64,000 nucleotides of DNA from Eledone cirrhosa (taxonomy: Eukaryota): positions 353,648,001-353,712,000 of the forward strand of contig OZ024742.1 of assembly GCA_964016885.1 (NCBI GenBank). The letters are read 5' to 3'. The stretch's first letter is position 1. Every line of letters begins with the position of its first letter. A program made the translations under genes and the position numbers. A model generated the notes under the pieces. The model was given only the letters and a program-made list of their open reading frames with translations. It did no database searches and was not told the origin of the DNA. Below are positions 5,731-59,936 of this stretch, in pieces.

Positions 5731-5849
5731 TCTCATAGCTGACAATTGTTTCTTTGAACTGGTAGGTCTAGAGATCGCTATTCGCTTATTTTCACGTTAC
5801 TCGATCGCCAATACAAAATTATAACCAGTCAGTTCTTCGGAGCATGCGA
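5731..5849 (-). ncRNA. Hammerhead with long stem II and CCGAAGA core (family A). Other copies at 9436-9556 (-) and 12866-12986 (+)
   Basis: gcatgct CCGAAGA ..actggt [long insert] accagt.. GAAA caattg TC agctatg. Stem III is the palindrome ACAATTGT. Confidence 0.7.
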
Positions 5850-6671: not shown

Positions 6672-9164
6672 TCACGGATGTTTGAATCTTATGAATTTAG
6701 TGGCAATTCTATGCCTGCAGAAGATAGATCTTTCTAACTTATTGTTAAGAAGCCTTTTTACATGTTTGAGGATATACAATAGCTCAAGATCACATAGCCC
6801 GCAGTGGGACATACCTGTACTATAGGTTTTAGCAGCCGACAACTTCGACCAGTTAATACTGTAGTTAGTGCTGTTGTCCTTCAGTTCCCATATTTTTTTG
6901 GCGAGGGTTGTGGCCACATAAGTGCACGGTTTTTCATTGAGTTCCTGTGCACATACCATCTTTTTTTAAAATAACCCGCGGTGGATCCTATGTAATTCCA
7001 GGTGGAGTTACCCGAGATGACCGTGCACATGTACACTAGGCTCGAATCGAGACATCTGTTCGCCAATGGGCACCTATCTGCTAGGTGACAGTTACAGTTT
7101 GAGGCGCTATTTTGTGCAGCTTTTGCATTCCTGTTTAGTACTCTGTTATAAGTGGGTTGTGATATATGTCCAATGGGGTTTTGCTGCTGCGCGTTTGTAT
7201 GCGCTTGTGGTTGTGATGTTGTGATGTGTTTGTGCTTATAATGTGGTGCTACGTTATGTATAGGTGCAGTTGATTTACTGGAGATATTTCTGTGGTTGAT
7301 CTTGCATATGTGTGATTCTATGTTTGCTGCTGTTGAGTATGAGAGTTTTATAGTAGATCTATTGAGTATGTTGTAATATCTATGCGAGATAGGGAAGTGT
7401 TTATCTATTAGTTTAAAGAATGTAGAGGGCAGTCTAGTTTTTATACAGGAGTTGAATATTGGGTTGAACCATAGGTATATTCTTTGTCTGTTTCTTCTAT
7501 TGTTTCTTGGGTTTACGTTATTAGTGTTTTAGCCGTTTACTCCAGGTGTTACGTTTCTAATCCTATATCTAGTCAAGCTATTCCTATTATTATGTGAGCG
7601 GTTGGAGTAGTAATTACTAGGATAGTTTACGTTGTCCTTAATCACTATATACTGCAGTTTATCGTTATGACCGGCCCTACTTAATGCTGCATTATAATAG
7701 TCAGCATGCTCGTTAAAGATTTCTAGGTTTGAGGATAAGCGGGATATTCGACGGGATATACTACGTGCTTTGGATCTAATCATGGATTTGGGGTGGTTTG
7801 AGTTGTAACTAATGTAGGCAAGATTTTCATTATTTTTGTGGAAAGGTTCTATTAATCCAGTATTTAGATTTAGAGTCACATCTAGAACATTTACCTTCTT
7901 ATGGTTCAGTTCATAGGTAACACTTAGGCCTAGTTTTTTTAAGAATATTCTAATATTTTTTCTTAGTCTTTCCATGCTCTGGTTGTTTAGGTGCCTAGCT
8001 ATAAGTAACGTGTCGTCCCTATAAATTCCTCCTTGGAGGTTACTGAATTCCTTATGTAGGTCGTGTACTATGAATAGCCCCACGATATCTGTGATTTGCA
8101 CAGAATCATTTGATCCCATTGTTATATCGAAGCTATTTATTCTATCCTTTCGTACCCAGTAGCTATTTTCAAATTTTATGATAGTCCTACTAGCCGCTAT
8201 TATTATTTCAATTTCATCATGGGTAAGATCAGAGTTATTTTGGGCAAATGTAAGCCCCTTATCTAGGGTAGCTGGGGATATGGATGCATAGAGTTGTATA
8301 TATCAAATTGTATGAAGTTACACGTCTCCCTATTTTGTATTTTATTGAACCATTTAATTGCCTCGTTAGATTAATATGCCCATCCAAGTCAGACATAGGT
8401 AAAATTAGCAAGAACCTTCTAGATAGGGTAATCGCAGAAATAAAGGGTAAACTAGAAATCAATTTATGGGGATAAATTGATTTCTAGTTTACACTTTATT
8501 TGTGCGATTACCCTATCTAGAAGGTTCTTGCTAATTTTTCCTATGTCTGACTTGGATGGGCATATTAATCTAATGGTGGTGTTAGTTTCAAAGTTATTTT
8601 TGTGATCCTTCAGGTTAAATGCTGGGTTGCACGGCGTTAGCGGTTCGGTCCTATCTGGAATTCCGTGTTTATTAACTATCTTGAGGCGCTCCACGTTAAT
8701 GCTGGTGAGTATAGATTCATTTGTTTTTTTATATTTGTTATGTAGTTCACGCTGGATAAAGCTATTGTATGTGTTAATGTCCATAGAGTATACGTTTGAT
8801 GTTTTGTCTGCTTTTACTATGATACCGTTAGTGTCTTTTAGTTTTTTTAGTAGTGTATTTAAGTCATTTTGCAATTTGTTGTGATTTGTTCCTTTTTTAA
8901 ATTTAGTTTTACTTATCATGTTCATAAGGTCCAGGTCAAAGGCATCGAGTGCGGGGATGTTTGGCGGGTTTTTGCAGGATTTAAACCCGTAATTCTCCTT
9001 AGAAAATTCCTTTGCGTTGGTATTCGGTCCCTCTCGAAATGGTAAGCTTTCCATCGGACCCTGCGGATGAAATCATTAGTCCGTCGTATCATGCCCAGTG
9101 TATAGTCCTTTTTTGTAGGTATAGGTATGTTTTTCAGTGACATACCTATACGGTGCTTCTCCAT
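6672..9164 (-). pseudogene. Naiad-type PLE ORF (RT plus GIY-YIG endonuclease), frameshifted
   Basis: MSLKNIP, KADKTSN, LKDHK, MGSNDSVQITDIVG, IYRDD, WFNP, CNC..CPL..C, YIGST..FKKR, CGLCDLE..CRH. Confidence 0.9.
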
Positions 9165-9929
9165 GTTGTTTCCATGCGTTAATGGTGTTGCTCGACCAGG
9201 TGGGAGCTAAATATACGGGGTAACAAATAATAGTTAAATGCAGTCCAATTAGGTATAGTCCAGTTATGGTATTCCAGGTAGTGGATGATATCAACGCTTG
9301 GCTTGGTTTGACTCAACAAGGTGTTTTCATAGTGATGCTGCGGGTATGCTGTAATTCCTATGTTGTAAACACTTGGAGTAATAATAAATCAGAAAAGAAG
9401 GTTGACATGGTTTGCTATACAAAAAAGGTTTTTAATCTCATAGCTGACAATTGTTTCTCTGAACTGGTAGGTCTAGAGATCGCTATTCGCTTATTTCCAC
9501 GTTACTCGATCGCCAATACAAAATTATAACCAGTAAGTTCTTCGGGACATGTGAGAATGAAGAGAATACAAAGGCAAGAAAAGAATATACAGGCTACTAT
9601 ATGAAGTAGTAATGGCATTCAGTTAGAACAATAACAACAATTAAAACAATGCTATTAATAAATTATTTGAGGAGACCCTGACATTACTTAGGTGGGGGGG
9701 TATAGTGTATCTAAGATTTCGGCGTGTAAACTAGCTGTCATGAAGCAAAAGTAAAAGTTTGGCATGTACAGAGTATCGAAGTGTATATCAATTTTACATT
9801 ATAAAGATAAGCCAGTGTTTACAGTCTTTCTTTTCATCTTCAATAACATACATGAGTGGGACAACACTGTCAAAGCTAAATAGTTGGTGAGTTAATACAG
9901 AGATTAAGGTGGTAATATAAGCATATATT

Positions 9930-10969
<1,040 letters not shown>

Positions 10970-12668: not shown

Positions 12669-13253
12669 CTAGTTTTACACACCGAAATCTTAGATTCACG
12701 CCGAAATCTTAGGTACACTATACCCCCCACCTAAGTAATGTCAGGGTCTCCTCAAATAATTTATTAATAGCATTGTTGTAATTGTTGTTATTGTTCTAAC
12801 TGAATGCCATTACTAGTTCATATAGTAGCCTGTATATTCTTTTCTTGCCTGTGTATTCTCTTCATTCTCGCATGCTCCGAAGAACTTACTGGTTATAATT
12901 TTGTATTGGCGATTGAGTAACGTGAAAATAAGCGAATAGCGATCTCTAGACCTACCAGTTCAGAGAGACAATTGTCAGCTATGAGATTAAAAACCTTTTT
13001 TGTATAGCAAACCATGTCAACCTTCTTTTCTGATTTACTATTACTCCAAGTGTTTACAAAATAGGAATTACAGCATACCCGCACCATCACTATGAAAACG
13101 CCTTGTTGAGTCAAACCAAGCCAAGCGTTGATATAATCCACTACCTGGAATACCATAACTGGACTATACCTAAGTGGACTGCATTTAACTATTATTTGTT
13201 ACCCCTTATATATATATATATATATACAAAAGACCATAAAACGAGCAGTCACC

Positions 13254-17426: not shown

Positions 17427-18772
17427 TCTCTCTAATTGCAACTGCCCTATTAAAAATAAATGTCCTCTCAACAACCATTGTCTTGATAAAAACTTAATTT
17501 ATGAATGTAAAGTTATAACTAGCACCAATTCCTTCACCTATTTTGGCTCCACTTCCACCTCTTTTAAAGCTCGTCTCTATAATCATCATTCATATTTTAA
17601 ATACAAACTTAAACGAACCAACACGGCTCTCTCAGAACTCATATGGTCCTTGAAAGACAAAAACATTAAATATACCATCTTTTGGAAGAAGGTTTCTTCT
17701 GCGTCCTCATACTTGAACAGCTCTCTATCTAAAATCTGTAATCTCTGCCTAAACGAAAAATTTACCATTATCTCTAATCTAGATTCTATAATAAGTAGAC
17801 GTACAGATTTGTTTTCTATCTGCTTGCATAAATTCCATAAGACATTTCACAAAGTATACAGCTAATATTCAATTCTTTATCAATTTAGAATCTTTTCTCA
17901 AAGGCACATATACATACACCTCTTTTAAAATATACCCATCTTCCTACCTTACTTCAAAGGGTATTATACACTCTATAATACTTGTTTACTCATTACCCTC
18001 ACTCTATCTTCACCTTGTAAAATCCTTCGTAACATATACATTTGTTTTGACGCCAGATTATTCATCCTTAATTTATTATTTTTTCTCCCCATCATCTAAC
18101 TCATTCTTAATACATATTAACTCTTTGTTCGCACATATTATGAATTCCTTCATTATACAAACCTTAACTTCACATTATTTTTCTCAAATCCTTCAATACA
18201 CAAACCTTAATAATTTTTTCTCTTCGTTAATTTTCAAATTTCCATAAAACTTGTAAACATACACACATTTTTTTGACGTTAGAATATTCATCCGCAATCC
18301 ATTATTCTTTTCTCTCTATCATCAAACTTTTTAATCTCAATACATATTAACTCCCTCTCCTTCTTCGTACATATTTTTCCCTTCGTTAATTTTCAAATTC
18401 TTTTAATTTATACGTTATCTTCCAACGGTTTTCAACCTCTCTATGTAAAACAATATATCTTTTCTCAGTTATCTCTTTCTCTCTATCACCCATCTCTCCC
18501 TCTCCACCTTCACTCTCATCTCCTCCCCTTTTTTTCATCCTTTCCACCCCCCACTCTAAATAAAATATTTTTCCCAATATCACACATCAATCTAAAATTA
18601 CTTGTTATATGTCGATTTAAAACTGCACTATCCACAAGTGTTTTTTAGCCTTTATATCATGTCCTCCTGTTTTATCTGATGAAAACACAACTATTATTGC
18701 ATGATGATGTTTGTTTTTGAAATGCGCATAATAAAATACATGGAACTCCTTTAACCATCTTTTGATCTTATA
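17427..18772 (+). mobile_element. Naiad-type family C, GIY-YIG end plus pLTR (short copy)
   Basis: Near-identical to 57093-58635. CNC..CPL..CL, YFGST..FKARL..H, CNLCLNE. Confidence 0.9.
18670..18736 (+). ncRNA. Hammerhead (family C). Second copy at 58533-58598
   Basis: ttttat CTGATGA aaaca..tgtttt GAAA tgcgca TA ataaaa. Stem III is the palindrome ATGCGCAT. Confidence 0.85.
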
Positions 18773-23079: not shown

Positions 23080-23610
<531 letters not shown>

Positions 23611-24847: not shown

Positions 24848-25355
24848 GTTTTAATATAGAAGAGATTCTACAGGACTAGAACTGTTTCATTCATTAGAAA
24901 TCATCAGGAATCTGGGTATCAAAAAATAAATATGGTATTTATAGGTCTCTACAAGTGGTAGGAGAGGGTGGGGAGTGGGATGGGTGCAGGTCATTGGTTG
25001 ATAGAGAAGGGAATTCATTAAAGGCTAATTCTACATAGCTATAGTTAATTTATATTTATTTACTCTAAAAACATAAATAAATATAAATTAACTATAGCTA
25101 TGTAGAATTAGCCTTTAATGAATTCCCTTCTCTATCAACCAATGACCTGCACCCATCCCACTCCCCACCCTCTCCTACCACTTGTAGAGACCTATAAATA
25201 CCATATTTATTTTTTGATACCCAGATTCCTGATGATTTCTAATGAATGAAACAGTTCTAGTCCTGTAGAATCTCTTCTATATTAAAACTATTATACTCTG
25301 CTATGTATTGAGTACCTTACTTACTGTGGTTACCTCCGATTCAACCCGGAATAAC

Positions 25356-27134: not shown

Positions 27135-28395
27135 TAGTATATCTACCAACATATATATGCAGATGCATAACTATGTTAGCAAATATATAGGTTTTGCCTT
27201 AGTAACTTTGTGTTTCAATGCAAGGGGATGCAGAACAATTATATAAAAGACGTAAAATAGGAAAATTATAAAAATTAACTTATTTACTAAAATTTCACTC
27301 CAACTAATTAATTTCTGAAAGGGAATAAACATGGTTGCCGATGGAACGCATTGAAAAAGCCTTTCGTCATCAGGAAGTCTATTCTCAGCTAAGTTCCCAG
27401 GCGATGCGTGGACACAGGGAACTTATACAAAAATAATTCAGTGGATGCAAAAAAGCAAGCGTGGACTAAATTCCAAGAGATTGAAAACATCACTGCCTAC
27501 TTAGTCGGTGGCAAATTCAAAAGAAGCAATCACGTGACATCGAGGTTAATCAGTGAGGAGTGGGCTGTTAAGAAGACAGTAGCCGAACTATTACTATGAA
27601 CTATAGTAGCAGTTTTGTCCAATTTTTGCTCAAGAAAATAATTTTGTGATAATTATAAAGAATTAGTATATCTACCAACATATATATATATACAGATGCA
27701 TACCTATGCTAGAAAATATATAGGTTTTGTCTTAGTAAATTTGTGGTTCAATGCAAGAGGATGCAGAACAATCATATGAAAGAGGTAAAATAAGAAAATT
27801 ATAAAAATTAACTTATTTACTAAAAGTTCACTCCAACTAATTAGTTTCTGAAATGGAATAAACATGGTTTCCGAATGGAACGCATGGAGAAAGCCTTTCG
27901 TCATCAGTAGGCAGTGATGTTTTCAATGTCTTGGAATTTAATCCACGCTTGCTTTTTTGCATCCACTGAATTATTTTTTATATAAGTTCCGTGTGTCCAC
28001 GCATCGCGTGGGACTTAGCTGAGAATAAACTTCCTGATGACGAAAGGCTTTCTCCATGCGTTCCATACGGAAACCATGTTTATTCCCTTTCAGAAACTAA
28101 TTAGTTGGAGTGAAATTTTAGTAAGTTAATTTTTATAATTTTCTTATTTTACGTCTTTCATATATATATATATATACATACATATATATAGGAACCAGTA
28201 AGACCCCGGCAGCTGAGCTCAAGCCGTTTCGACGGCTAATTCTGGACTAGTGATAATTATAAAGAATTAGTATATCTACCAACATATATATATATACAGA
28301 TGCATACCTATGCTAGAAAATATATAGGTTTTGTCTTAGTAAATTTGTGGTTCAATGCAAGAGGATGCAGAACAATCATATGAAAGAGGTAAAAT
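27131..28395. mobile_element. ORF-less pLTR cluster: two tandem copies, an inverted copy and a partial third copy
   Basis: 27131-27372 matches 27660-27907. 27908-28160 is inverted. 28250-28395 is partial. HHR-like core CTGATGA cgaa..ttcg GAAA, with stem I unresolved. Confidence 0.8.
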
Positions 28396-36690: not shown

Positions 36691-37167
<477 letters not shown>

Positions 37168-38827: not shown

Positions 38828-38887
<60 letters not shown>

Positions 38888-38931
38888 AGAAAAAAATTAC
38901 GAAATGGAAATGCGGGTATATAGAATTTATT

Positions 38932-39048
38932 AGGTAACAATTGTTTCTATAGTGTATGAGTTACCTATACCTCGCTATTTGAATAATACACAAATATTAT
39001 CAAAAACCGAAAGTACACTGTAAGTCAACACACCATGTCATCAGACCT
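38932..39048 (-). ncRNA. Hammerhead with about 95-nt stem II. Second copy at 41948-42064
   Basis: Minus strand: aggt CTGATGA catggtgtgttga..tcatacactata GAAA caattg TT acct. Confidence 0.8.
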
Positions 39049-39458
39049 TTGTATTAGAATGATATGAAAATATTTTATACACTAGATAAAAGATAAAGAA
39101 GGAGGTAGGAAGAGAAGGGGAAGAGGGAAGTGAGTAAGGTGGAGGGAGTCTTAGGGTTTAAGACTGTCAGACTAGTAGAGATTGTGAAGAGAGAATGTTT
39201 TGGCAGCAGTTAGCTTAATGGGGCGTGCTAAGGTTGGCTGGGAAGTAGATACTTCTAGTGGTGTTGTTCGGACAAAATTTAGTTAGAGGGGTCAAAGTGG
39301 TACAATGTCACAGACAAGTTATTAGGGCTATTATAGTAGCAGGTTATTTCTAAAGGGGTCCAGAAAAACAGTGTTTAGTACTATTATTATAGAAAGCCAT
39401 ATCTAGTGTATAAACATATAAGACAGAAATTTGCAAACGTTGGTGTAAAAAGGTAACA

Positions 39459-41740
39459 TTATATGCATTTAAAAAAAGAAAAAGTCGTTTTCAAACGATG
39501 GTTACAGTATAGAGAACGTTCAATTTTGCTGTTCAAAAGTTTGTTTACCGACGTTAAAATGCAGTATATCTCTAAATTGCATAACTTGCAGAATCGATGA
39601 TTTTGCTGATATGCAGGCGCAGCTGCAATAATTTGCCAATCAAGGGAGAACGCTTGATTGTTCTTCCGAAGCTTCCAGGCTTTATCGGCGAGGGTTGTTA
39701 CGGAGCGCATTTTCTCGTGCCTGATCGAAGATCGATGTTGGTATAGGCGAGCCTTGAAAGAAGTTGCGGTACATCCGACGTAATACCATTTGTTGGTCCC
39801 GGAATTAATTGTACACCGGTAGACAATATTGCGTGCTAGGCACTGGTTATTCAGTGGGCACGTACCTGGTTTGGTGCAGTTACAACTATTTTTATGTTTT
39901 GCAGTAGAATCCTGGATAGTTTGGTGGGGTTGTGGTTGCGTGTTAGTGCGTTGCATGTTGCTATGCTGGTGCGCTGAGTCATTAGGGATGTACTTATTCA
40001 GTATTGCTGAGTTGAGTTTTCTAATTAGTTGTTCTATGTTAGGTGCAGTGGAGTATGAGAGTCTAATGGTGCGCGAGTTAAAGATTTTATAGTATTTATG
40101 TAAAGTTGTAAAGTGTTTATTGATTAGTGTATAGAATTGTGAGATAATCTTAGTGCTAATAGAACAATTGTATACGGGGTTATACCATATGTACTCTCTA
40201 CGTCTGACTCTATTTGCTGGTTTGCACCTGTTAGTATGCCTATTGATGTGTGTGTGTGGTGCAATACTAGTTCGACTTAGATGTGTTTTATTCCTAGTAC
40301 TTATGTGGTTATCGTCTAGATATTCAATTTTCTCGAAGTAACCAGCTTTTCTAAGTGCGTCATTATAATATTCAGCATGCTCGTTGAAGGTCTGCAAATT
40401 AGACGCCAGTCGGGAGATCCATATGGATATATTTTTAGGGATAGATTTAATAATGGAATGAGGATGGTTCGATTTTACATTAACGTACTTAAGATTTCAT
40501 TAAGTTTGTGAAATGGCTCTATATTACCGTTATTAAGGTTGAAGGTAACATCCAAGAAGTTGACCACCTTAAGATTGTGTTCAAAGGTAATATTAAGCCC
40601 TAGTTCTAAGAAAAGTTTCCTAATGTTTTTACGTCGCCTTTCTAGGTTTTGTTTGTTCATATTCTTGACTAATAGAAGTGTATCGTCGCGGTATATTCCG
40701 CCGTGGAGGTCCGTAAATTCGCTCTCGAGTCTATGGGCTATATAGATCCCAACCAAATCCGTGACCTCCGCCGAATCATTAGAACCCATCGTAATGTCGA
40801 ATTCCGAGGGTCTATCCCTGCGGACCCAATAACTATTTTCAAAGTGCACTACTGTGCGTCTAGCTTCAAGTATAATATTAATTTCCACGTTTGTGAGGTC
40901 CGAGTTAGTCTTAGCAAAAGAGAGGGCCTTATGCAGGGTTTCGGGTGAAATAGAGGAATAGTATTCATCTATATCGAATTCTATAAAAGAAGATTTGTTT
41001 TTGTCCCTAATGTTATTGAACCATCTTATTGCCTGATGAGTATTACCCCATAATTTAATATCTACCTTAGCCTTAACTTGGGGGATAATACGATCTAATA
41101 TGTACTTACTAATCTTACCTATATCGGACTTTGAAGGACATATTAATCTAATTTTAGGGTTAGTATCGAAGTTATCCTAATGGTCCTTCAGATTAAAAGT
41201 CGGTGTAGCTGGGGATAGGGGTACCGTTCTGTCGTCAATTTTCAGTTTCCTAACAATATCACATGCTGCGTTATTAATGTTGGTTAGTGTAGTTGCGTTT
41301 GTTTTTTTGTATTTCCTATGTAATTCCTTACGTATAAAATTGTTATATGTTTCTACATCCAGGGTGTATAGATTCGAAGTTTTGTCTGCCTTTATGATAA
41401 TTCCTTTGGTATTCCTTAGGTTGTCGAGTAGAGATTTAATATCTAGTTGCAGTTCGTTTTTCCTTCCGTTTGTAAATTTGATTCCGGTTATCATTTTCAT
41501 TAAGTCCTGTTCGAAAGAATCCAAAAGAGGGTTAGAGGGTGGGTTTTTGTAGGATTTGAAACCAAACTTCTCGTTGTTGGTGTCCGAAGTTTGTGTAATC
41601 CTTTTCCGATCGAAGTGGAAGGCCTTCCATCTAATCCGCCGAATAAATTCGTTGGTCCTTTGTATCATACCAAGAATGTAATCCTTTTTACCCTGAATGG
41701 GTATGTTTTTTAAGGACATACCACAATGATGTTTTTCCAT
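39459..41740 (-). pseudogene. Naiad-type RT plus GIY-YIG ORF with few lesions (stop near 41177, frameshift near 40480)
   Basis: MSLKNIP, KADKTSNLY, LKDH, MGSNDSAEVTDLVG, IYRDD, IWYNP, CNC..CPL..CL, YYVGCT..FKARL..H, CKLCNLE..CNH. Confidence 0.92.
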
Positions 41741-42419
41741 TTCAAAGACGCGGGTTGATAGGTTGCTCGACTGTAAAGGAGTGTGAAGAATTAGATAATT
41801 TGTATTCCAATGTTACTAAGTAGTTGCATTGGATGGAGTCAACTGACGTCAGAGATTGCTCAACGTATAATAAAGTGTGTTTTAAAATCCGGAGAAAATA
41901 TAGAGAAAAAATTTACGAAATGGAAATGCGGGTATATAGAATTTATTAGATAACAATTGTTTCTATAGTGTATGAGTTACCTATACCTCGCTATTTGAAT
42001 AATACACAAATATTATCAAAAACCGAAAGTACACTGTAAGTCAACACACCATGTCATCAGACCTTTGTATTAGAATGATATGAAAATATTTTATACACTA
42101 GATAAAAGATAAAGAAGGAGGTAGGAAGAGAAGAGGAAGAGGGAAGTGAGTAAGGTGGAGGGAGTCTTAGGGTTTAAGACTGTCAGACTAGTAGAGATTG
42201 TGAAGAAAGAATGTTTTGGCAGCAGTTAGGTTAATGAGGCGTGCTAAGGTTGGCTGGGAAGTAGATACTTCTAGTGGTGTTGTTCGGACAAAATTTAGTT
42301 AGAGGGGTCAAAGTGGTACAATGTCACAGACAAGTTATTAGGGCTATTATAGTAGCAGGTTATTTCTAAAGGGGTCCAGAAAAACAGTGTTTAGTACTAT
42401 TATTATAGTACTATTATTG

Positions 42420-43205: not shown

Positions 43206-44559
43206 GTAATATATATATATATATATATATATCTATATATATATAGTAATATAGGAACCAGTAAGACCCCGACAGCTGAGCTCAATCCGTTTCGACGGCT
43301 AATTCTGAATTAGCCGTCGAAACGGCTTGAGCTCAGCTGTCGGGGTCTTACTGGTTCCTATTACCCACTCTACTACCTCAAGTATTGAGTACTTTGGTGC
43401 GTTATGGTCCACCTGGTTCCTTACCACATTTCCTTCGTTATAGTAATATATATATATATAAATATATATATATTGGTAAACGGAATAGAAAATGCTGACA
43501 AATGGTTCACAGTTGAAAAATGGTTTAATTAGGAATAAAAGAGTATTATTGATTGTATGGGTTAGTATTCAGTTGTGCCTTTAAGTTTTTAGGTTTTTAC
43601 CGGTTGCGCATTTCTAAATGCTTTTCAAAAATAATTTTGAGATAGAGTGTCCGTGTTGTTTGCTCTGATCTGATTAGTTTTGGGAACTCTACCTGTTTTT
43701 ATGTTGAAAAAGTGGTTCCAGCGATAATTTGGTTTTGCAAAAATTCTTGTGGTCAAAACAATTTTGATTGGTCGGTAGAGGTCATGTGAATGTAAAAAAT
43801 AGATTTTGCGCCAAGACTGTTTTTGAAGGCCCCAAGGTAGAGAAGATCTCCAAACTATGGAAAGGTGACTGCAACAGAGAAGAAGTGAAATCCCTTCAAC
43901 GCTGGGAAAAAAGTGCCGTTTGGTTCCTACACTATGAATCGACTTTTCAAACGGATTACACCTCCAATAACCCGTTCATAACAATAGGAAAACCCATAAC
44001 TGAACCGCACAACAACTTCTCAAACCCCCAAGCCTCTATCAAACGAAGAAGGAAGCACCACACCGAAGATGAACTTCCCAACTTCGCTACCATAAGAAGG
44101 AACAAAAACCCAAGAAATCATCTCCCCCAGAATGACATTTACAACTTTCCCCCTTCAAGCAGACACCATACCAAATCACTCAACTACTACGCGGATGCCT
44201 CATCGTCAAACATAGGGAAAAGATACGACTGCCATGATAGATATAACAACTTCCCCGCTTCAAGGGTACAGCAAGGTAATTACCATTTTCTCAACTCTCG
44301 CTTCCACAATACACAACAAACCCACACCACACGATACAACCAACAACGTAGGCCACTTATAACACCACAATACAACATGGCACATAGAAACACACACCCA
44401 TACTCGCAGTACAGGAACACCCCATTCAATCTACAACCACCAACCCGAACCACATTTTACAACAACAAGGAATATAACAAACACAGGAGAGCACTTAACA
44501 TCAGCAGACAACCCCTCTACCCCAACCATTTTTTAGACACAACACACAGATACAGGCAA

Positions 44560-46850
44560 ACAAAATAACACAAGACAGGGAGGAGAGACCGATAGTAATA
44601 AAAATTATCAATCTTACTAGTGCAGAACCAACACCCAACCTTATCAACTTACTCTCCAAAGGTCTTAAATTCACACCGACCCCACTACGTCCTAACTACT
44701 ATGAAATGAAGGAAGACATCACAGACTTCTGTAGAAAGTTACGACTTAGTGAACAACTATTCGACCAGTACAATGAGGATGAATCATTAGCCAGAAATAG
44801 AAGCAATTACACCCCTTTAAAAGGTAGAAATAAAATCCTGGACGAATTCTGTGAACACATCACAAACTTCCCTTACCAACACTTGCACAGACAAAAACAC
44901 AAGCCAAACCTCAACAAGAAAGAATGGGAAGAATTAAATAGATTAAAAACCAACATAACCATTACAATTAAAGAGGCTGATAAAGGGAGTACAGTAGTCC
45001 TAATGGAGACAGAATTCTATATCAACTTAGCGCTCTCCACTCTGGAAAACGAAACATACTACGAAAAGGCTGAACACTACAATCAACAGAAAATTATGAG
45101 AAACCTAAAAACTCTAATCAACCAATACAAAGGACTCACTAACAAGGAATTCAGCTTCATCACAGACTTCACAAGTAAATCCAGGCTCTTCTACGGTATC
45201 CCTAAAGTATATAAAAGCGAATCGATAAGTAAGGCATGCAAGGAAGCCACAGACATAGTCATCAATGTCCCTCACCCAATGATCTCAAATTAAGACCTAT
45301 AATAGCAGGCCCCGCTTGCGAAACGCACCGTCTTAGTAACTTCATTGATACCCTTCTCAAATCCTTCCTCAAACACATCAAAAGCTATATAAGGGACGAC
45401 CTAGAATTGCTCAATCACCTCCCTAATATGCCACTTTCTGAACAAACCCTACTAGTGACGTTCGATGTAGTCAACCCATACTCCAACATCCCCCACAACC
45501 TAGGAATAGAAGCTATCCAATTCTGGCTGGATAATTTCCACAATGAACACCCACAACGCATCAAAAAAGAATTCGTGATAGAGGGACTCCAATTTATCTT
45601 GGAGAACAATTACTTCGTTTTCAATAACAAACCCTACAGGCAGAAATCTGGGACCGCTATGGGAACGAAAACAGCCCCCACTTATGCCAACCTAGTCATG
45701 GGATACCTGGAAATCACCCTCTACACTAAAGTCCTAAACAAATTTGGAAACACCCTCCACTTAAACATTGAAAGGAACTGGAAGCGATATCTAGATGACT
45801 GCTTCATCCTTTGGCATGAAAACGTCGAAAAACTTAGAGAATTTCACACCCTTATAAATGGGCTCAACACAAATATTAACTTCACAATGGAATACAGCCA
45901 TCAACAACTCCCCTTCCTCGACATCCTCATTAAGATCCATAACAAAAAAATAGAAACAGACATATACTACAAGCCCACAGACTCCAAGCAAAATCTCCCC
46001 TTCAACTGTTGCCACCCTAGACACGTTAAAATTAATATTCCCTACAACTTAGCCAAGAGAATCTGTACTATAGTCTCCAATAAAAACATCTGCTACTTAC
46101 GGCTACAAGAACTAAAGGACACACTCATAGGCAGGGACTACCATGCATCACTAATTGACCATGGAATCCAACCTGCCCTAAAACTCAGTACCCAGGACCT
46201 TAGACACCCTAAAGTAAATCAACGGAAACTAAAAGCTCTTCCATACATCTCCACACACAACCCTCTCAACAATGAAGCCTTTGACACCATCCTCCAGAAC
46301 ATCCCTGTGTTGAAAAAGGACCATAGAATGAACCAAATTCTACGAACACACGATATCATAAAGAGCAAAAGACAATCCAAGTCAATGAAAAACATCTTAA
46401 CACATGCCGAAGTACTGCCAACCACAACAACGAAACCCACAGTAAAAAAATGCGATAGACCCAACTGTGGCATTTGCATCAACCTAATAGAGGGTTCGGA
46501 ATTCTATTTCAAAGACGTACAACTTTTTTATAGTAAAACACAAGTTCACATGTGCATCGGAAAATCTAATATATGTATTAACTTGCTCAGGTTGTCGAGA
46601 ACTATACATAGGCCAGACCAAAAGCAGCCTCCGCCAACGCATGCCTGTCCATAGATCCCAAATTAAAATACAGGAATACAAGAAAATACCACTGAGTGAA
46701 CACATTGATACCTGTGACGCCCAAAATCATCCCAACTTCAGAATCTTTCCCCTCTACAAATTTAAAGATAATGCCACCCACACCCAGCGCATCAGCAAGG
46801 AATCTTACTTCATTAACAAATACGGACCCCGTCTAAACACTTCTCCCTAA
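44560..46850 (+). pseudogene. Neptune-type RT, Cys linker and GIY-YIG ORF, frameshifted
   Basis: LLSKGLKFTPTP, KEADKGS, LRPIIAG, GTAMGTKTAPTYANLVMG, RYLDD, LPFLD, CDRPNCGIC, LIYVLTCSGC..YIGQT. Confidence 0.92.
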
Positions 46851-48715: not shown

Positions 48716-52101
<3,386 letters not shown>

Positions 52102-52999: not shown

Positions 53000-55173
53000 A
53001 ATATATACATACATATATACATATATATATACATACACATATATATATACACACAAAAATACATACACATACACATAGGTATGTGAAGGGCAAAACAAAA
53101 AGAATATATGGGGGGGGCATAAGAGAAGGTAAAATATAAGGGGAGGTAAGGGAGAAAAAATGTTTTAAATATACAAGAGTACAGAAGGTAGAGTCAGCAA
53201 AATAAAAACCGTAGCAAAAGTAAAGAGCAGAGAAGGAGTTCAAGGCGGTTGATTTCTCATAGGAGTGTCAATCCAGTTACAGATCAGATGCGATTTCATA
53301 TGAGGACAGCATCTGAATATCTCAGTCTTTGAGTTAATGCAAGCGGAAGTGGCTCTCAAGTTTAGCAAAATCCTATACTTTTCTGTGGTGCACAAAGAAC
53401 AATTCTTTGTGCCCCTTTGGTACTCACTCGAATGGTCTAATATAGACCAATCAATAGAGTACGGGATATTACTATCCTTGAGATCCCATACCTTACTTGC
53501 GAGGGCCGTTGATGTTCGTTTATCAGAGTGCTTAAAAGAAGCGACATGTTAGTAAAATTTGGTTTTAAACCTGTCCTGGGTAATACCGACATATCGCTCA
53601 CTCCTCGCTGGCTGGTTGCTGATAACTGGCGTTATCTTAGCCTCATAAACGACAGATTTTGTGTTGCATTTACACTGCAATGGGCATTCATCCGGCTTCC
53701 TGCAACTGCATCCTGGATTTATCCTCGTACGGTTTGAACTGGTGATTTTGGACTTCATGGATGGGCAACAAGGGTAGCTGATCTTAACTGCATTCCTATT
53801 AAAAATCTTATAATATCTATGAATAGGAGGAAAATGTTTGTCTAATAGTTCAAGGAATTTCCTACCTACATTAGTTTTGACAGTTAGAGAGAAGGGGGGT
53901 GTGAACCAAATAATCTTCCTTCTCCTGTTATTATGGTTAGTTTTAGGGAGGGGGAGTAGATAAATAATAATTTTTTTCCGTAAAACCGCTGTTCTTAAGG
54001 GCTTTATTATAATAAGGGGCGGCTTTATTAAAAATGTCTATAGACGAAGATAAGGTAGAAATCCTACGGCTAATGTTAGGAATAAGATTATTAAAAACTA
54101 TAGGGGGATGGCAAGACTCTTTGTGTATATACCTAAGATTTTCATTAGGTTTATGATAGGGTTTAAAAGAGGCAGTAAGTAGATCAAGATTAATATCAAG
54201 AAAGTTAGCATTAGTAAGGTTCGTCTCTATAGTAATTTTAAGGTTAAGATTAGCAAAAGTATTAATTAAATCTTTACGGAATTTATCAAGATTATGGCCG
54301 TTGGTGGTATGAGAAACTGCTAATCCGTCATCACGGTATAAACCGATATTATGGGACGGAAATTTCTCTTTGAGTGTGTGGAGAAGGAATAATCCTACTA
54401 AGTCACACACATCCGCACTGTCATATGAACCCATTGCAACATCAAAAGAGCTTTCAGGGTTTGACTTTTTAACCCAAATATTATCATTAGTAAAAAGTAA
54501 AGTTTTTCTAGCATGAAAGATAATGTCCTCTTCTAATTTAGAGATATTAATGAAGGGTCTTGCAAAATCTAAGGCATTGGTTAATAAGGAAACACTAATA
54601 GAAGGGTAAAAATCGACAATATCAAATTGGCTAAATCTACACTTATTTTTACCTTGTATATTATTGAACCAAGAAATAACAGAGGAAGTATTTAGCCACT
54701 GTGAAAGGTCAGTGTTAGTTCTAATTTGGAGAATTATTTTTCTTAAGATTTTCTTACTAGCAAGGCCAACCTCGGATTTAGCCGGGTTAATCAGTCTACA
54801 ACTAGGTCGATTAGTAAAATCCAGTTTATGGTCTTTAAGGGTAATATATATTCTATACTCTTAGCTAAGCTTTCAATCCGGTTATCTATTTGTAAAGAAC
54901 TAGCTAGTTCTTTAGCTTCTTTATTGATAGTATTGTAGCTATTATTATTAGTCAATTGATATTTATTGGTAATACTATTAGTTAAAAGTTGGTTATACAA
55001 ATTACTATTAACTTCAAACAGGTTTTTAGTTTTATCAGAAAGAACGAAAGTGTTTGTAGAATTTCTAAAATTAGAGATATCGTTAGAAAGTTTAGTTTGA
55101 AAGTTATTATTGTACTTACGAAATTTGATATCACTAATTAGATTGACGAGGTCTAATTCGAAGTTGGCCATAT
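52128..55173 (-). mobile_element. Naiad-type PLE family D, 5'-truncated
   Basis: SDKTKNLF, MGSYDSADVCDLVG, LYRDD, IWFTPPFS, CSC..CPL..C, YVGIT..FKTKF. Two HHR motifs in the pLTR, at 52159-52216 and 52787-52844. Confidence 0.9.
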
Positions 55174-56112: not shown

Positions 56113-58631
56113 AATATAAGATCAAAAGATGGTTAAAGGAGTCCATGTATTTTATTATGCGCATTTCGGAAAATTCCTCAACTTCGCGGTGGAATTTATC
56201 GTGACGACGGACTCTTTACTATCCTAAATTGCAATATAGTTAACCTTAATATTATTAAGAACAATATACGTAATCTCTTTAACCAACATAACCTAAAAAT
56301 TGAATTTGATAATAGTATCAAACTAGCTAATTTCTTGGATGTATCTCTTAATCTTGATACTGGCCTATATTACCCTTACCATAAAAACAATGAGAACCTA
56401 AATTATGTTAACTTTAAATCTAACCATCCTACCAATATCAAGAATGCTATAGTTAGTAATATTGGAAAAAGAATATCTAACATATCCTCTAATAAACACA
56501 TCTTTGATGCTAACGCCAATTACTATAATAACGCACTTTCTAAAGCCGGCTATCCAGATAAAATCAAACATAGTAAAGAAACAAATTCTAGAAAAACTTA
56601 CAGTAGAATAATTAATCATGATCATTCCAATAATTTTAATAAAAGACCTAGATACAAAAACATAATCTGGTATAATGCTCCTTTCTCCATCTCTATTAAT
56701 AACAATATTCCTAAATTATTTTTTAGTGCCTTAAATAAATGCTTCCCTCCCTCACATATCTATAGTAAAATATTTAACAAACACACCATCAAATTTTCTT
56801 ATTCTACATCCTCCAATATTTCCAACATCATCTCTAAACACAACAATAAAATACTAAATACTAAATCTCTTCCTTCCAACATTGAATTTCATAATAACAG
56901 TAATAGTACTCCCGACGTCATTGTAAACCCTAGGCTAACTTCTGTAAACACAAATACAACGTCAAACACAACTTCGCTAAATGTTCATAATCCAACTCTA
57001 AATCAAGAAACTATTATTCCTATTATTCCTATCGCAAACAACTTCTCCAATCCAATTCCTTCTATAGATAACACTAGGTCACTCATTAATAATCTCTCTA
57101 ATTGCAACTGCCGCATTAAAAATAAATGTCCTCTCAACAACCATTGTCTCGATAAAAACTTAATTTATGAATGTAAAATTATAACTAGCACCAATTCCTT
57201 CACCTATTTTGGCTCCACTTCCACCTCTTTTAAAGCTCGTCTCTATAATCATCATTCATCTTTCAAATACAAACTTAAAAGAACCAACACTGCTCTCTCA
57301 GAACTCATATGGTCCTTAAAAGACAAAAACATTAAATATACCATCTTTTGGAAGAAGGTTTCTTCTGCATCCTCATACTTGAACAGCTCTCTATCTATAA
57401 TCTGTAATCTCTGCCTAAATGAAAAATGTACCATTATCTCTAACCTAGATTCTATAATAAATAGACGTACCGATTTATTTTCTATCTGCCTCCATAAATT
57501 CCATAGGACTTTTCACAAAGTATACAGTTAATATTCAATTCTTTATCAATTTAGAATCTTTTCTCAAAGGCAAATATACATACACCTCTTTAAAATATAC
57601 CCATCTTCCCACCTTACTTTAAGGGGCATTATACACTCTATAATACTTGTTTACTCATTACCCTCATTCTATCTTCACCTTGTAAAATCCTTCATAACAT
57701 ATACATTTATTTTTTTGACGTTAGAATATTCATCCGCAATCATTATTATTATTTTTTCTCTCTATCATAAATCTTTTTAATCTCAATTTCATCCTTAATT
57801 TATTATTATTTTTTCTCCCCATCAACGAACTCATTCTTAATACACATTAACTCTTTATTCGCATATATTATCAATTCCTTCAATATACAAACTTTAACTT
57901 CACATTATTTTTCTCAAATCCTTCTACACACAAACCTTAATAATTTTTCTCTTCGTTAATTTCGAAATTGCCACAATACTTATCAACACACACTTTTTTT
58001 TTACGTTAGAATATTCATCCACAATTATTATTTTTTATCTCTATCTTCATACATAAATTCCCTTCGTTAATTTTCAAATTCCTTTAATTTATGTAAAACA
58101 ATATATCTTTCTCTCAGTTATAAAAACTATCTCTTTCTCTCTATCACCCATCTCTCCCTCTCCACCTTCACTCTCATCTCCTCCCCCTTTTTTAATCCTC
58201 CCCCCCCCCCTCCATAAATAAAATATTCTTTCCTCGCACATATCCTCCCTTCGTTAATTTCAAATTTTTAATTTATACATTATCTTCCAACGGTTTTCAA
58301 CCTCTCTATGTAAAACAATATATCTCCTCTCAGTTATAAAAACTATCTCTTTCTTTCTCTCTATCACCCATCTCTCCCTCTCATCTCCTCCCCTTTTTCA
58401 TCCTTCCCCCCCCCCTCTCTAAATAAAATATTTTTCCCAATATCACACATCAATCTAAAACCACTTTTCATATGTTGATTTAAAACTGCACTATCCACAA
58501 GTGTTTTTTAGCCTTCATATCATGTTCTCCTGTTTTATCTGATGAAAACACAAATATTATTGCATGATGATGTTTGTTTTTGAAATGCGCATAATAAAGT
58601 ACATGGAAGTCCTTTAACCATCTTTTGATCT

Positions 58632-59410: not shown

Positions 59411-59770
59411 TTGTATATACATATGTACATGTATATATATGTGTGTGTGTATGTGTGTGTGTGTGTAAATGTGTGTGTGTGTGTGTGTATGTATGAATGT
59501 ATGTATGTGTATATGTGTGTATATATGTGTATGTGTGTGTAGGTGTATGTTTTATATATATATATATGTGTATATGTATATATGTATGCGTACATTTATA
59601 TATATGTATATACGTATGTGTGTGTAAGTATGCTTTTGGGGGTTTTTTGTGTGTGTTTGCATGTGTAGTTTTATTTTATTTTTCCTTTCCTTCTCCCTTT
59701 TCCAGCCTCACTTTCATATAGATTGCATTTTTGTTTTTAGAATCCATATTCAATAAACAAACCAGAATTT

Positions 59771-59828
59771 TTCATTCTGAGGATTGAAAGCAAAACCTTT
59801 TGCTTTTAAGAAACCACTGGTAAATGGA
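59771..59828 (+). ncRNA. Canonical hammerhead (family D). Degenerate paralog at 55787-55844
   Basis: ttcatt CTGAGGA ttgaaagcaaaa-cc-ttttgcttttaa GAAA cca-c-tgg TA aatgga. Confidence 0.88.
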
Positions 59829-59936
59829 ATAATTGCCTTATGTTGTTTATTACATAATAATAATAATTAAGCTCTGTTGCCTACATAGAGCACTCTTTTT
59901 TCCTGGACTTTTCCGATGGAATTACTTCATTCATAC

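Follow-up and report, generated by a model that had tools for sequence, protein, structure and literature searches.

Hammerhead motifs with a long, structured stem II in Hydra-clade Penelope-like elements of Eledone cirrhosa

What kind of RNA is encoded by a hammerhead core whose two halves lie 90 nt apart, and what might the intervening segment do? The question is raised by a motif at positions 38932–39048 of the window, by which we mean the whole 64-kb (64,000-nt) stretch of Eledone cirrhosa DNA that was analyzed. The motif is present where an earlier note had placed it, but on the minus strand, where it reads AGGU-CUGAUGA-[90 nt]-GAAACAAUUGUU-ACCU. It is a type I hammerhead motif, with stem I formed by AGGU and ACCU, the core half CUGAUGA at 39044–39038, GAAACAAUUGUU at 38947–38936 and the predicted cut at 38936/38935. 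The stem II insert (38948–39037, minus) is predicted to fold into a single bulged rod of about 36 pairs, with a C-A mismatch at 10.1-11.1. AATAAA at 38926–38931 (minus), 4 nt past the predicted cut, is a candidate poly(A) signal. This copy lies in the 3′ pseudo-LTR (pLTR) of an element of family I (38882–39392, minus), at the end of which is a (TA)n tract. The 5′ pLTR (41898–42408, minus) lies 3,016 nt away, has the same length of 511 nt and is 98.6% identical; it carries a second motif (41948–42064, minus) with an identical 90-nt insert (41964–42053), and an ATG follows the predicted cut of this copy at 211 nt.

Four further motifs of this kind are found in the window. Family A contributes one in a 3′ pLTR (5738–5843, minus; CCGAAGA core, 81-nt insert at 5753–5833, GUC cut site), one in a 5′ pLTR (9443–9548, minus; 81-nt insert at 9458–9538) and one in an inverted piece (12874–12979, plus; 81-nt insert at 12884–12964). 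An A-like motif (23335–23441, plus) has the CUGAUGA core and an 82-nt insert (23345–23426) homologous to that of family A (E 2e-16). All six motifs consist of a 5′ core half, an insert of 81–90 nt whose ends pair, and GA(A/G)ACAATTGT-H, which bears out the proposal of core halves some 80–95 nt apart with a pairable insert at six sites and of a stem III octamer kept throughout (6/6). The octamer ACAATTGT occurs 10 times in the window against an expectation of 3.07 ± 1.96, a count reached by 0 of 100 shuffles; one occurrence belongs to a degenerate relative (36902–36937, plus; core CTGAAAA) with an 11-nt stem II, that is, to the octamer without a long arm. We compared the cores with the consensus C3 U4 G5 A6 N7 G8 A9, G12 A13 A14 A15.1, U16.1 H17 (taken from the part of PMC3088659 available). 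Three of the six copies match it exactly. The three family A copies read CCGAAGA (U4C) and not CTGANGA, and the inverted copy, which the earlier note had placed at 12866, also has GAGAC for GAAAC. The pairing of stem I that had been claimed for all copies is seen in 5/6 (3–4 bp); in the 5′ pLTR copy of family A, listed there at 9436, the first pair is a C-A mismatch. Stem III amounts to 2 bp in a monomer and to 8 bp in a dimer. The G10.1-C11.1 pair is not kept: U-U (43) and A-A (41) predominate, alongside other mismatches, among 104 A-superfamily motifs, and family I has C-A. A canonical loop 2 is absent, and no partner for a loop 1-loop 2 contact was found by eye in the subfamily majority lines.

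The elements that carry these motifs had been named Naiads. The name matters because Naiads have been described without canonical hammerheads, whereas Hydra-clade elements are known to have them. In family I, an ORF at 39459–41740 (minus) encodes a reverse transcriptase followed by a GIY-YIG endonuclease, with RWK at 41632, DKT at 41386, YRDD at 40693 and CNCx5C at 39884; in the window copy the frame is interrupted by a single in-frame stop and a single frameshift. The family A ORF (6672–9164, minus; DKT at 8808) is broken by several frameshifts. In translations of both families the reverse transcriptase precedes the GIY-YIG endonuclease, which is C-terminal in a single ORF of less than 3 kb, and both RWK and DKT are present. 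Near the endonuclease end are the cysteine motifs CNCTKPGTC, CKLC and CNH in one and CNCHLADRC, CGLC and CRH in the other, which correspond to the CxCx5C linker, CxxC and CxH, and the insertion target is (TA)n. The Hydra clade is characterized by this domain order, RWK, DKT and these cysteine motifs, and Naiads by a leading endonuclease, a CxC domain, DKA replacing DKG and the lack of a canonical hammerhead (Craig et al. 2021, PMC8557442, in the sections available). The present elements share with Naiads a Penelope-like nature, pLTRs and (TA)n targets, and none of those distinguishing features (same sections of PMC8557442). The order of domains, DKT instead of DKA and the absence of CxC, which was not found between the ATG and DKT in either translation, rule out a Naiad identity, and together with RWK and CxCx5C they identify the elements as Hydra-clade Penelope-like elements (PLEs). 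In a comparison by eye, the N-terminal half of the ORFs resembles the Hydra proteins printed in the supplement of PMC8557442. Pfam and protein searches returned no match for the ORF pieces of families I and A.

The same association holds in the fetched loci. The motifs lie approximately 400–1,100 nt downstream of Hydra-like coding pieces in family I, family A, the A-like group, related subfamilies and a 98-nt family; the remaining fetched copies are mostly truncated, with no ORF within 1,500 nt. A tree of the endonucleases groups family I with the A superfamily as its sister (91/95; 44–45% identity), at a node that is unstarred and subject to long-branch warnings, and with one row (L169) that probably belongs to a neighbouring element. 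A shared origin of their arms is thus possible, though short of demonstrated. The window also contains Hydra-type ORF pieces at 53549–54860 (minus) and 56137–57531 (plus), which adjoin motifs with 26-nt and 36-nt arms. A different PLE occupies 43768–46654 (plus) and 50874–51770 (minus); it has GLKF, DKG and a C-terminal endonuclease with extra cysteines, is Neptune-like by motif, and matches Pfam RVT_1 below the cut-off.

Is the insert a folded RNA, and has its fold been under selection? The insert of family I is more stable than its shuffled versions (z = −4.72, 0/200), and the A-like copy also stands out (z −2.82). In contrast, the whole motifs of the three family A copies were no better than shuffled sequence (z −0.58, +0.54 and +0.40). 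More broadly, z was below −2 for 7/10 inserts of family I, 13/13 of family F2 and 13/43 of the A superfamily. The ends of the insert pair with a median probability of 0.93–1.00 in five groups and 0.67 in a sixth, compared with 0.06–0.22 in shuffles. Stem I changes its sequence from family to family with pairing kept (AGGU/ACCU, GCU/AGC, AGUCU/AGACU, GUAUU/AAUAC, UCCA/UGGA).

For covariation we used a sequence-only alignment of 104 A-superfamily motifs, filtered for a length of 76–84 and a short motif; part of this set was collected with a pattern that fixes TAGAC and TCA, both of which lie outside the helix tested. The central helix of the A insert ranked first among all possible 6-bp helices (1.93 versus a null maximum of −0.26 ± 0.35; 0/120, tree-based). 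It was 85% paired, against 60 ± 7% in tree-based nulls (0/150), and in a cell count 89% paired, against 29–43% for slid partners. The pairs switched between G-C and A-U, among A-U, G-C and U-A, and between C-G and U-A, with G-U intermediates frequent. Changes that keep a pair outnumbered those that break one on internal branches (16.8 versus 6.5) and were outnumbered on terminal branches (32 versus 46.6), and double changes came to about 2 per reconstruction on internal branches, hence few independent events. The basal helix of the 58–62 nt group was likewise beyond its null (0/120). The compensatory changes looked for are present in the central helix, but no single pair was significant in an all-versus-all covariation test (best E approximately 1.9–2.6 for A and 0.75–1.0 for B), pair types in the apical helix of the A insert were not in excess (nulls reached the value in 76/150), and RNAalifold on a 43-row alignment gave 6 pairs only. 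In this 43-row set the unpaired and mismatched columns in GUAU/UAGAC and AG/UAG, whose letters were not fixed in the search, are at least 90% constant. Between the A or A-like and the D or E subfamilies, four-fold sites are 37–43% identical and whole inserts 54–60%. Among the 24 distinct inserts of family I, a single pair has changes in both of its bases, and shared variants at bulge edges disrupt three pairs; this variation is consistent with maintained pairing and does not prove it, the family being too young. On the strength of these comparisons, the motif is very probably a real hammerhead-shaped RNA under selection.

The long arms are not all of one kind. A single core is combined with stem II spacers of 11–12, 20, 58–62, 75–83, 90 and 93–105 nt, with rods and three-way junctions among the architectures. 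A search with a covariance model built on the A insert alone found the four window relatives and also family J, whose stem III differs (E 5e-4 and 9e-4), and gave no match to the inserts of family I or of families F2, F5, G, H and B. Pairwise scores of the family I insert against other families stayed at z ≤2.4. The distinct hammerhead subclass that the earlier note had postulated is on these grounds not supported as a single homologous group: inserts show no detectable relation between families and their lengths spread from 11 to about 105 nt. Nor does ACAATTGT mark a long arm, since it also occurs in 8,120 matches with short spacers, and other long-arm families use other palindromes. The variants of the octamer remain palindromic (ACGATCGT, ACTCGAGT, ACGTACGT and ACTGCAGT), family F2 carries both ACAATTGT and ACGATCGT, and an octamer that is palindromic was present in 31/34 motifs with stem I and 6/16 without, 12 of the 34 having been picked for ACAATTGT. 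An octamer that varies yet mostly stays palindromic agrees with the dimer model that Cervera and de la Pena proposed (PMC4209133, as far as available). Further long-arm families (83–100 nt) with other palindromic octamers were seen at L283–L312 and L320–L327, where family J has the A-superfamily motif. Other motifs with a palindromic stem III and spacers of 14, 12, 26, 36 and 51–52 nt were noted in the window, which holds a hammerhead-like pair at 10232–10276 (minus) and 10486–10530 (plus), scored by Rfam as HH9 at 38.6 bits (sub-threshold), and hammerhead-like motifs at 24863–24913 (minus), 25223–25273 (plus), 59770–59829 (plus), 18668–18738 (plus), 58531–58601 (plus), 27297–27378 (minus) and 28029–28111 (plus).

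Across the genome such motifs are abundant. These counts are of pattern matches, not of curated copies, in spacer bins of 2–32, 39–69, 70–100 and 101–131 nt, with 33–38 nt outside them. CTGANGA followed by ACAATTGT gave 5,986 matches at a spacer of 70–100 nt, compared with 6 for a reversed-pattern control; the respective numbers were 8,120 and 4 at 2–32 nt, 1,738 and 5 at 39–69 nt, and 209 and 5 at 101–131 nt. With the U4C core (CCGANGA) and a 70–100 nt spacer there were 4,287 matches against 3 in the control, so that U4C makes up 4,287/10,273 of the long ACAATTGT matches. Other loop III sequences gave 6,332 matches against 922. Among the matches listed, H17 was present in 30/30 from the genome, and the combination of H17 with a closed insert and a stem I of 3 bp or more was found in 20/30 from the genome and 0/79 from metagenomes. 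Pattern matches in metagenomes look like chance, and neither protein searches nor the metagenome scan returned relatives beyond this genome. A family with an 11–12 nt stem II predominates among the short matches, and a long arm is thus not required for success. The suggestion that length-limited searches miss the long arms was confirmed: Rfam hammerhead models gave no match at the six window sites (E ≤1) and none at gathering score in 8 further loci, although in the vicinity of the window sites they do pick up two short motifs with scores under the threshold; Craig et al. used a core-only descriptor with a spacer of no more than 17 nt (PMC8557442, available sections).

Our best reading of these sequence patterns is that the motifs are dimer-type, type I hammerheads in the pLTRs of Hydra-clade PLEs, and that their stem II is a selected RNA domain of 75–100 nt. 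It draws on the core letters, a covarying stem I of 3–5 bp, the paired insert ends, the palindromic octamer, the occurrence in both pLTRs and the central helix of the A superfamily. The predicted active fold of a monomer lies 2.7–6.5 kcal/mol above the minimum free energy, and the octamer duplex is predicted at −6.4 kcal/mol. As to function, we propose, with a probability of about one half, that the arm is where the reverse transcriptase-endonuclease encoded by the element docks. The arm would fold first and clamp the two core halves, as suggested by the predicted fold of a single copy, in which the arm forms and stems I and III do not. Two copies carried in tandem on one transcript, at a distance of 3,016 nt in family I, would then pair through the octamer and cut after GUU or GUC. 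Cutting in a tandem dimer would make the arm the last ~110 nt of the unit-length RNA; in uncut RNA some 50 nt would separate the arm from the downstream end of the element, the presumed start of copying. The conserved internal loops, namely the A-G mismatch in GUAU/UAGAC and the AG/UAG loop, may be the contact for the protein, and the bound reverse transcriptase-endonuclease would switch on cutting and stay near the start of copying. We favor docking because the hammerhead of the Anolis Poseidon element PAc cuts only with the element's protein present and its reverse transcription initiates internally, downstream of the hammerhead (PMC11167929, available part). In the same source, cleavage is not needed for insertion. 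Counting against docking, the 5′ junctions have no unique peak at the predicted cut site.

In family I, 0/8 junctions with (TA)n fell at the predicted cut site. In family F2, among matches with a non-T before the cut site, 19/23 were junctions (18 events), compared with 3/9 at +1 and 2/5 at −1; at −2 there were 26 matches, 14 with A, and sites of TATA microhomology were junction-rich among the matches listed. Family F2 has a three-way-junction arm of 93–97 nt in a unit of ~1.0 kb without a long ORF (L234–L245, e.g. L236 and L242–L245). It is often tandem, with motifs 1,000–1,013 nt apart in 6/12 loci, is retrozyme-like, and had 2,006 search candidates. One F2 insertion (L237:1422–2424) has both of its ends precisely at predicted cut sites, the start being a fold-back junction; it resembles a monomer of unit length that was copied. 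Tandem non-coding relatives are treated in PMC7229834 and in a 2026 retrozyme preprint (both available in part). Many copies are back-to-back inverted pairs with the junction 0–130 nt upstream of the core (L034/L035, L043/L044, L073/L074, L125, L126), where a truncation bias is possible.

The alternatives to a docking arm differ in what they leave for stem II to do. The foremost of them, although less likely than not, is that stem II binds nothing, merely closes the core and is free to grow, its fold being kept only to spare the ribozyme. Engineered insertions into stem II are tolerated, and free growth would fit the range of spacers and architectures on one core, the lack of relation between inserts of different families and the great success of short-arm families. 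It is harder to reconcile with a length held at 75–83 nt, with unpaired letters nearly fixed across subfamilies that are near synonymous saturation, and with the recurrence of the A-superfamily motif in family J on a different stem III. We consider it unlikely that the arm is a built-in control of cutting, either by docking of its first internal loop on stem I or the flank in place of the loop 2 contact, or as a slow switch that decides whether the RNA stays uncut as a polyadenylated message or is cut to serve as template. The switch is suggested by the position of the cut just before AATAAA, which occurs within 22 nt past the cut in 8/10 family I, 35/43 A and 11/15 B motifs (family A itself uses ATTAAA); CLEC2 hammerheads likewise cut between stop codon and poly(A) signal (PMC6765202, available part). 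Against this, AATAAA is missing in 13/13 F2 and 14/14 short-arm motifs, and the sequence is AT-rich. The loop that might dock would be the large asymmetric one after the first 7–8 bp of stem II in the A superfamily, yet this is the most variable part of the insert, and no pairing partner was seen by eye in the subfamily majority lines.

Less probable still is a motif that has ceased to cut and is retained for another purpose: its fold would be recognized, either as RNA or as single-stranded DNA, or it would belong to the pLTR promoter. U4C in 4,287 long matches, the mismatched 10.1-11.1 position, a stem I of just 3–4 bp and the lack of family I junctions at the cut site would all agree with it. 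U4C has considerably lower activity in vitro and yet supports viroid infectivity (PMC3088659, available part), and the published Hydra hammerheads too have mismatched or extra bases at 10.1-11.1 (PMC8557442, available sections). Cutting is favored by the conservation, in families unrelated to one another, of the core letters, H17, stem I covariation and an octamer that is palindromic; the frequent G-U intermediates favor RNA. That the insert is a spliceosomal intron is very improbable. In family I the insert carries GT shortly after its beginning and AG at its end, so that its removal would yield a minimal core with a 3-nt stem II, and introns of Drosophila Penelope overlap the hammerhead (PMC4209133, available part). 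The GT position is not conserved across the A superfamily, covarying helices are unexpected in introns, and the genome search found no family I copy with a 0–30 nt spacer or joined to a candidate 3′ splice site; these genomic negatives weigh little because PLEs tend to retain introns. With neither insert-less nor spliced copies found in the genome search and the ends not conserved, we disfavor the intron reading. Four runs of contigs, in which depth tracked copy truncation, contained no joint within the motif and speak neither for nor against expression. A strong-looking 3′ splice site (pyrimidine tract and CAG) was noted at 41771 (minus), 31 nt ahead of the ATG of family I; a 5′ UTR intron ending there could overlap or contain the hammerhead, and no spliced copy from two candidate donors was found.

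How do these motifs compare with known hammerheads? The presence of a ribozyme in Hydra-clade elements was already known, and the 75–100 nt arm is what appears to be new: the literature searched does not describe a stem II of this length in PLE hammerheads. The motifs resemble published Hydra-clade hammerheads in clade, 3′ UTR/pLTR position, type I topology and (TA)n targets (PMC8557442 File S2, available part), as well as in a short stem III that tends to a palindrome. They differ in the long stem II and the common U4C, the published motifs having 3–7 bp in stem II and loops of 3–10 nt (PMC8557442, available sections). The octamer occurs at 10 places in the supplement of Craig et al., as available, preceded by GAA in none. 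The closest in length are PLE-X1_sMoe and PLE-X1_sTam of spike-moss, marked there as deviating, whose stem II region of ~50 nt is about half as long; they belong to another clade, are two families, and no covariation analysis of them was seen in the available sections of PMC8557442. With the minimal, dimer-type PLE hammerheads of Cervera and de la Pena (2014, PMC4209133, available part) the motifs share the pLTR site, the short stem I, the palindromic helix III, the predicted activity as dimers and the low intrinsic activity; there, a "large" helix II has 6–8 bp, without a structured internal domain. Viral type I motifs with a "long" helix II also have 6–8 bp (PMC13725137, available part). The model of a weak PLE hammerhead activated by its own protein has its parallel in Anolis PAc, although PAc belongs to another clade and has a short stem II that overlaps the start codon, unlike the ATG set well behind the cut here (PMC11167929, available part). 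The discontinuous CLEC2 hammerhead also combines a long insert with a cut before a poly(A) signal, but it is of type III, has its insert of 150–1500 nt in helix I and resides in a single host gene and not in a transposon repeat (PMC6155905, PMC6765202, available parts).

A wider scenario, which we regard as improbable though worth stating, is that each Hydra lineage grew its own protein-binding domain on stem II. The reverse transcriptase, the closest retroelement relative of telomerase, would grip this domain near the template start in a telomerase-like manner; the arm would be a family-specific key that couples cutting to retrotransposition and that non-coding 1-kb parasites have borrowed, and long arms may hide ribozymes in "ribozyme-less" clades. 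The role that hammerheads play in Penelope-like elements could be probed by swaps along the natural range of arm lengths, 11 to ~105 nt on a common core, and among related reverse transcriptase-endonuclease proteins, with regard to protein-assisted cleavage and template recognition. A single genome yields over 10,000 pattern matches with an arm invisible to current models; ribozymes of animal genomes are therefore likely undercounted, and claims of ribozyme-free clades depend on short spacer limits.
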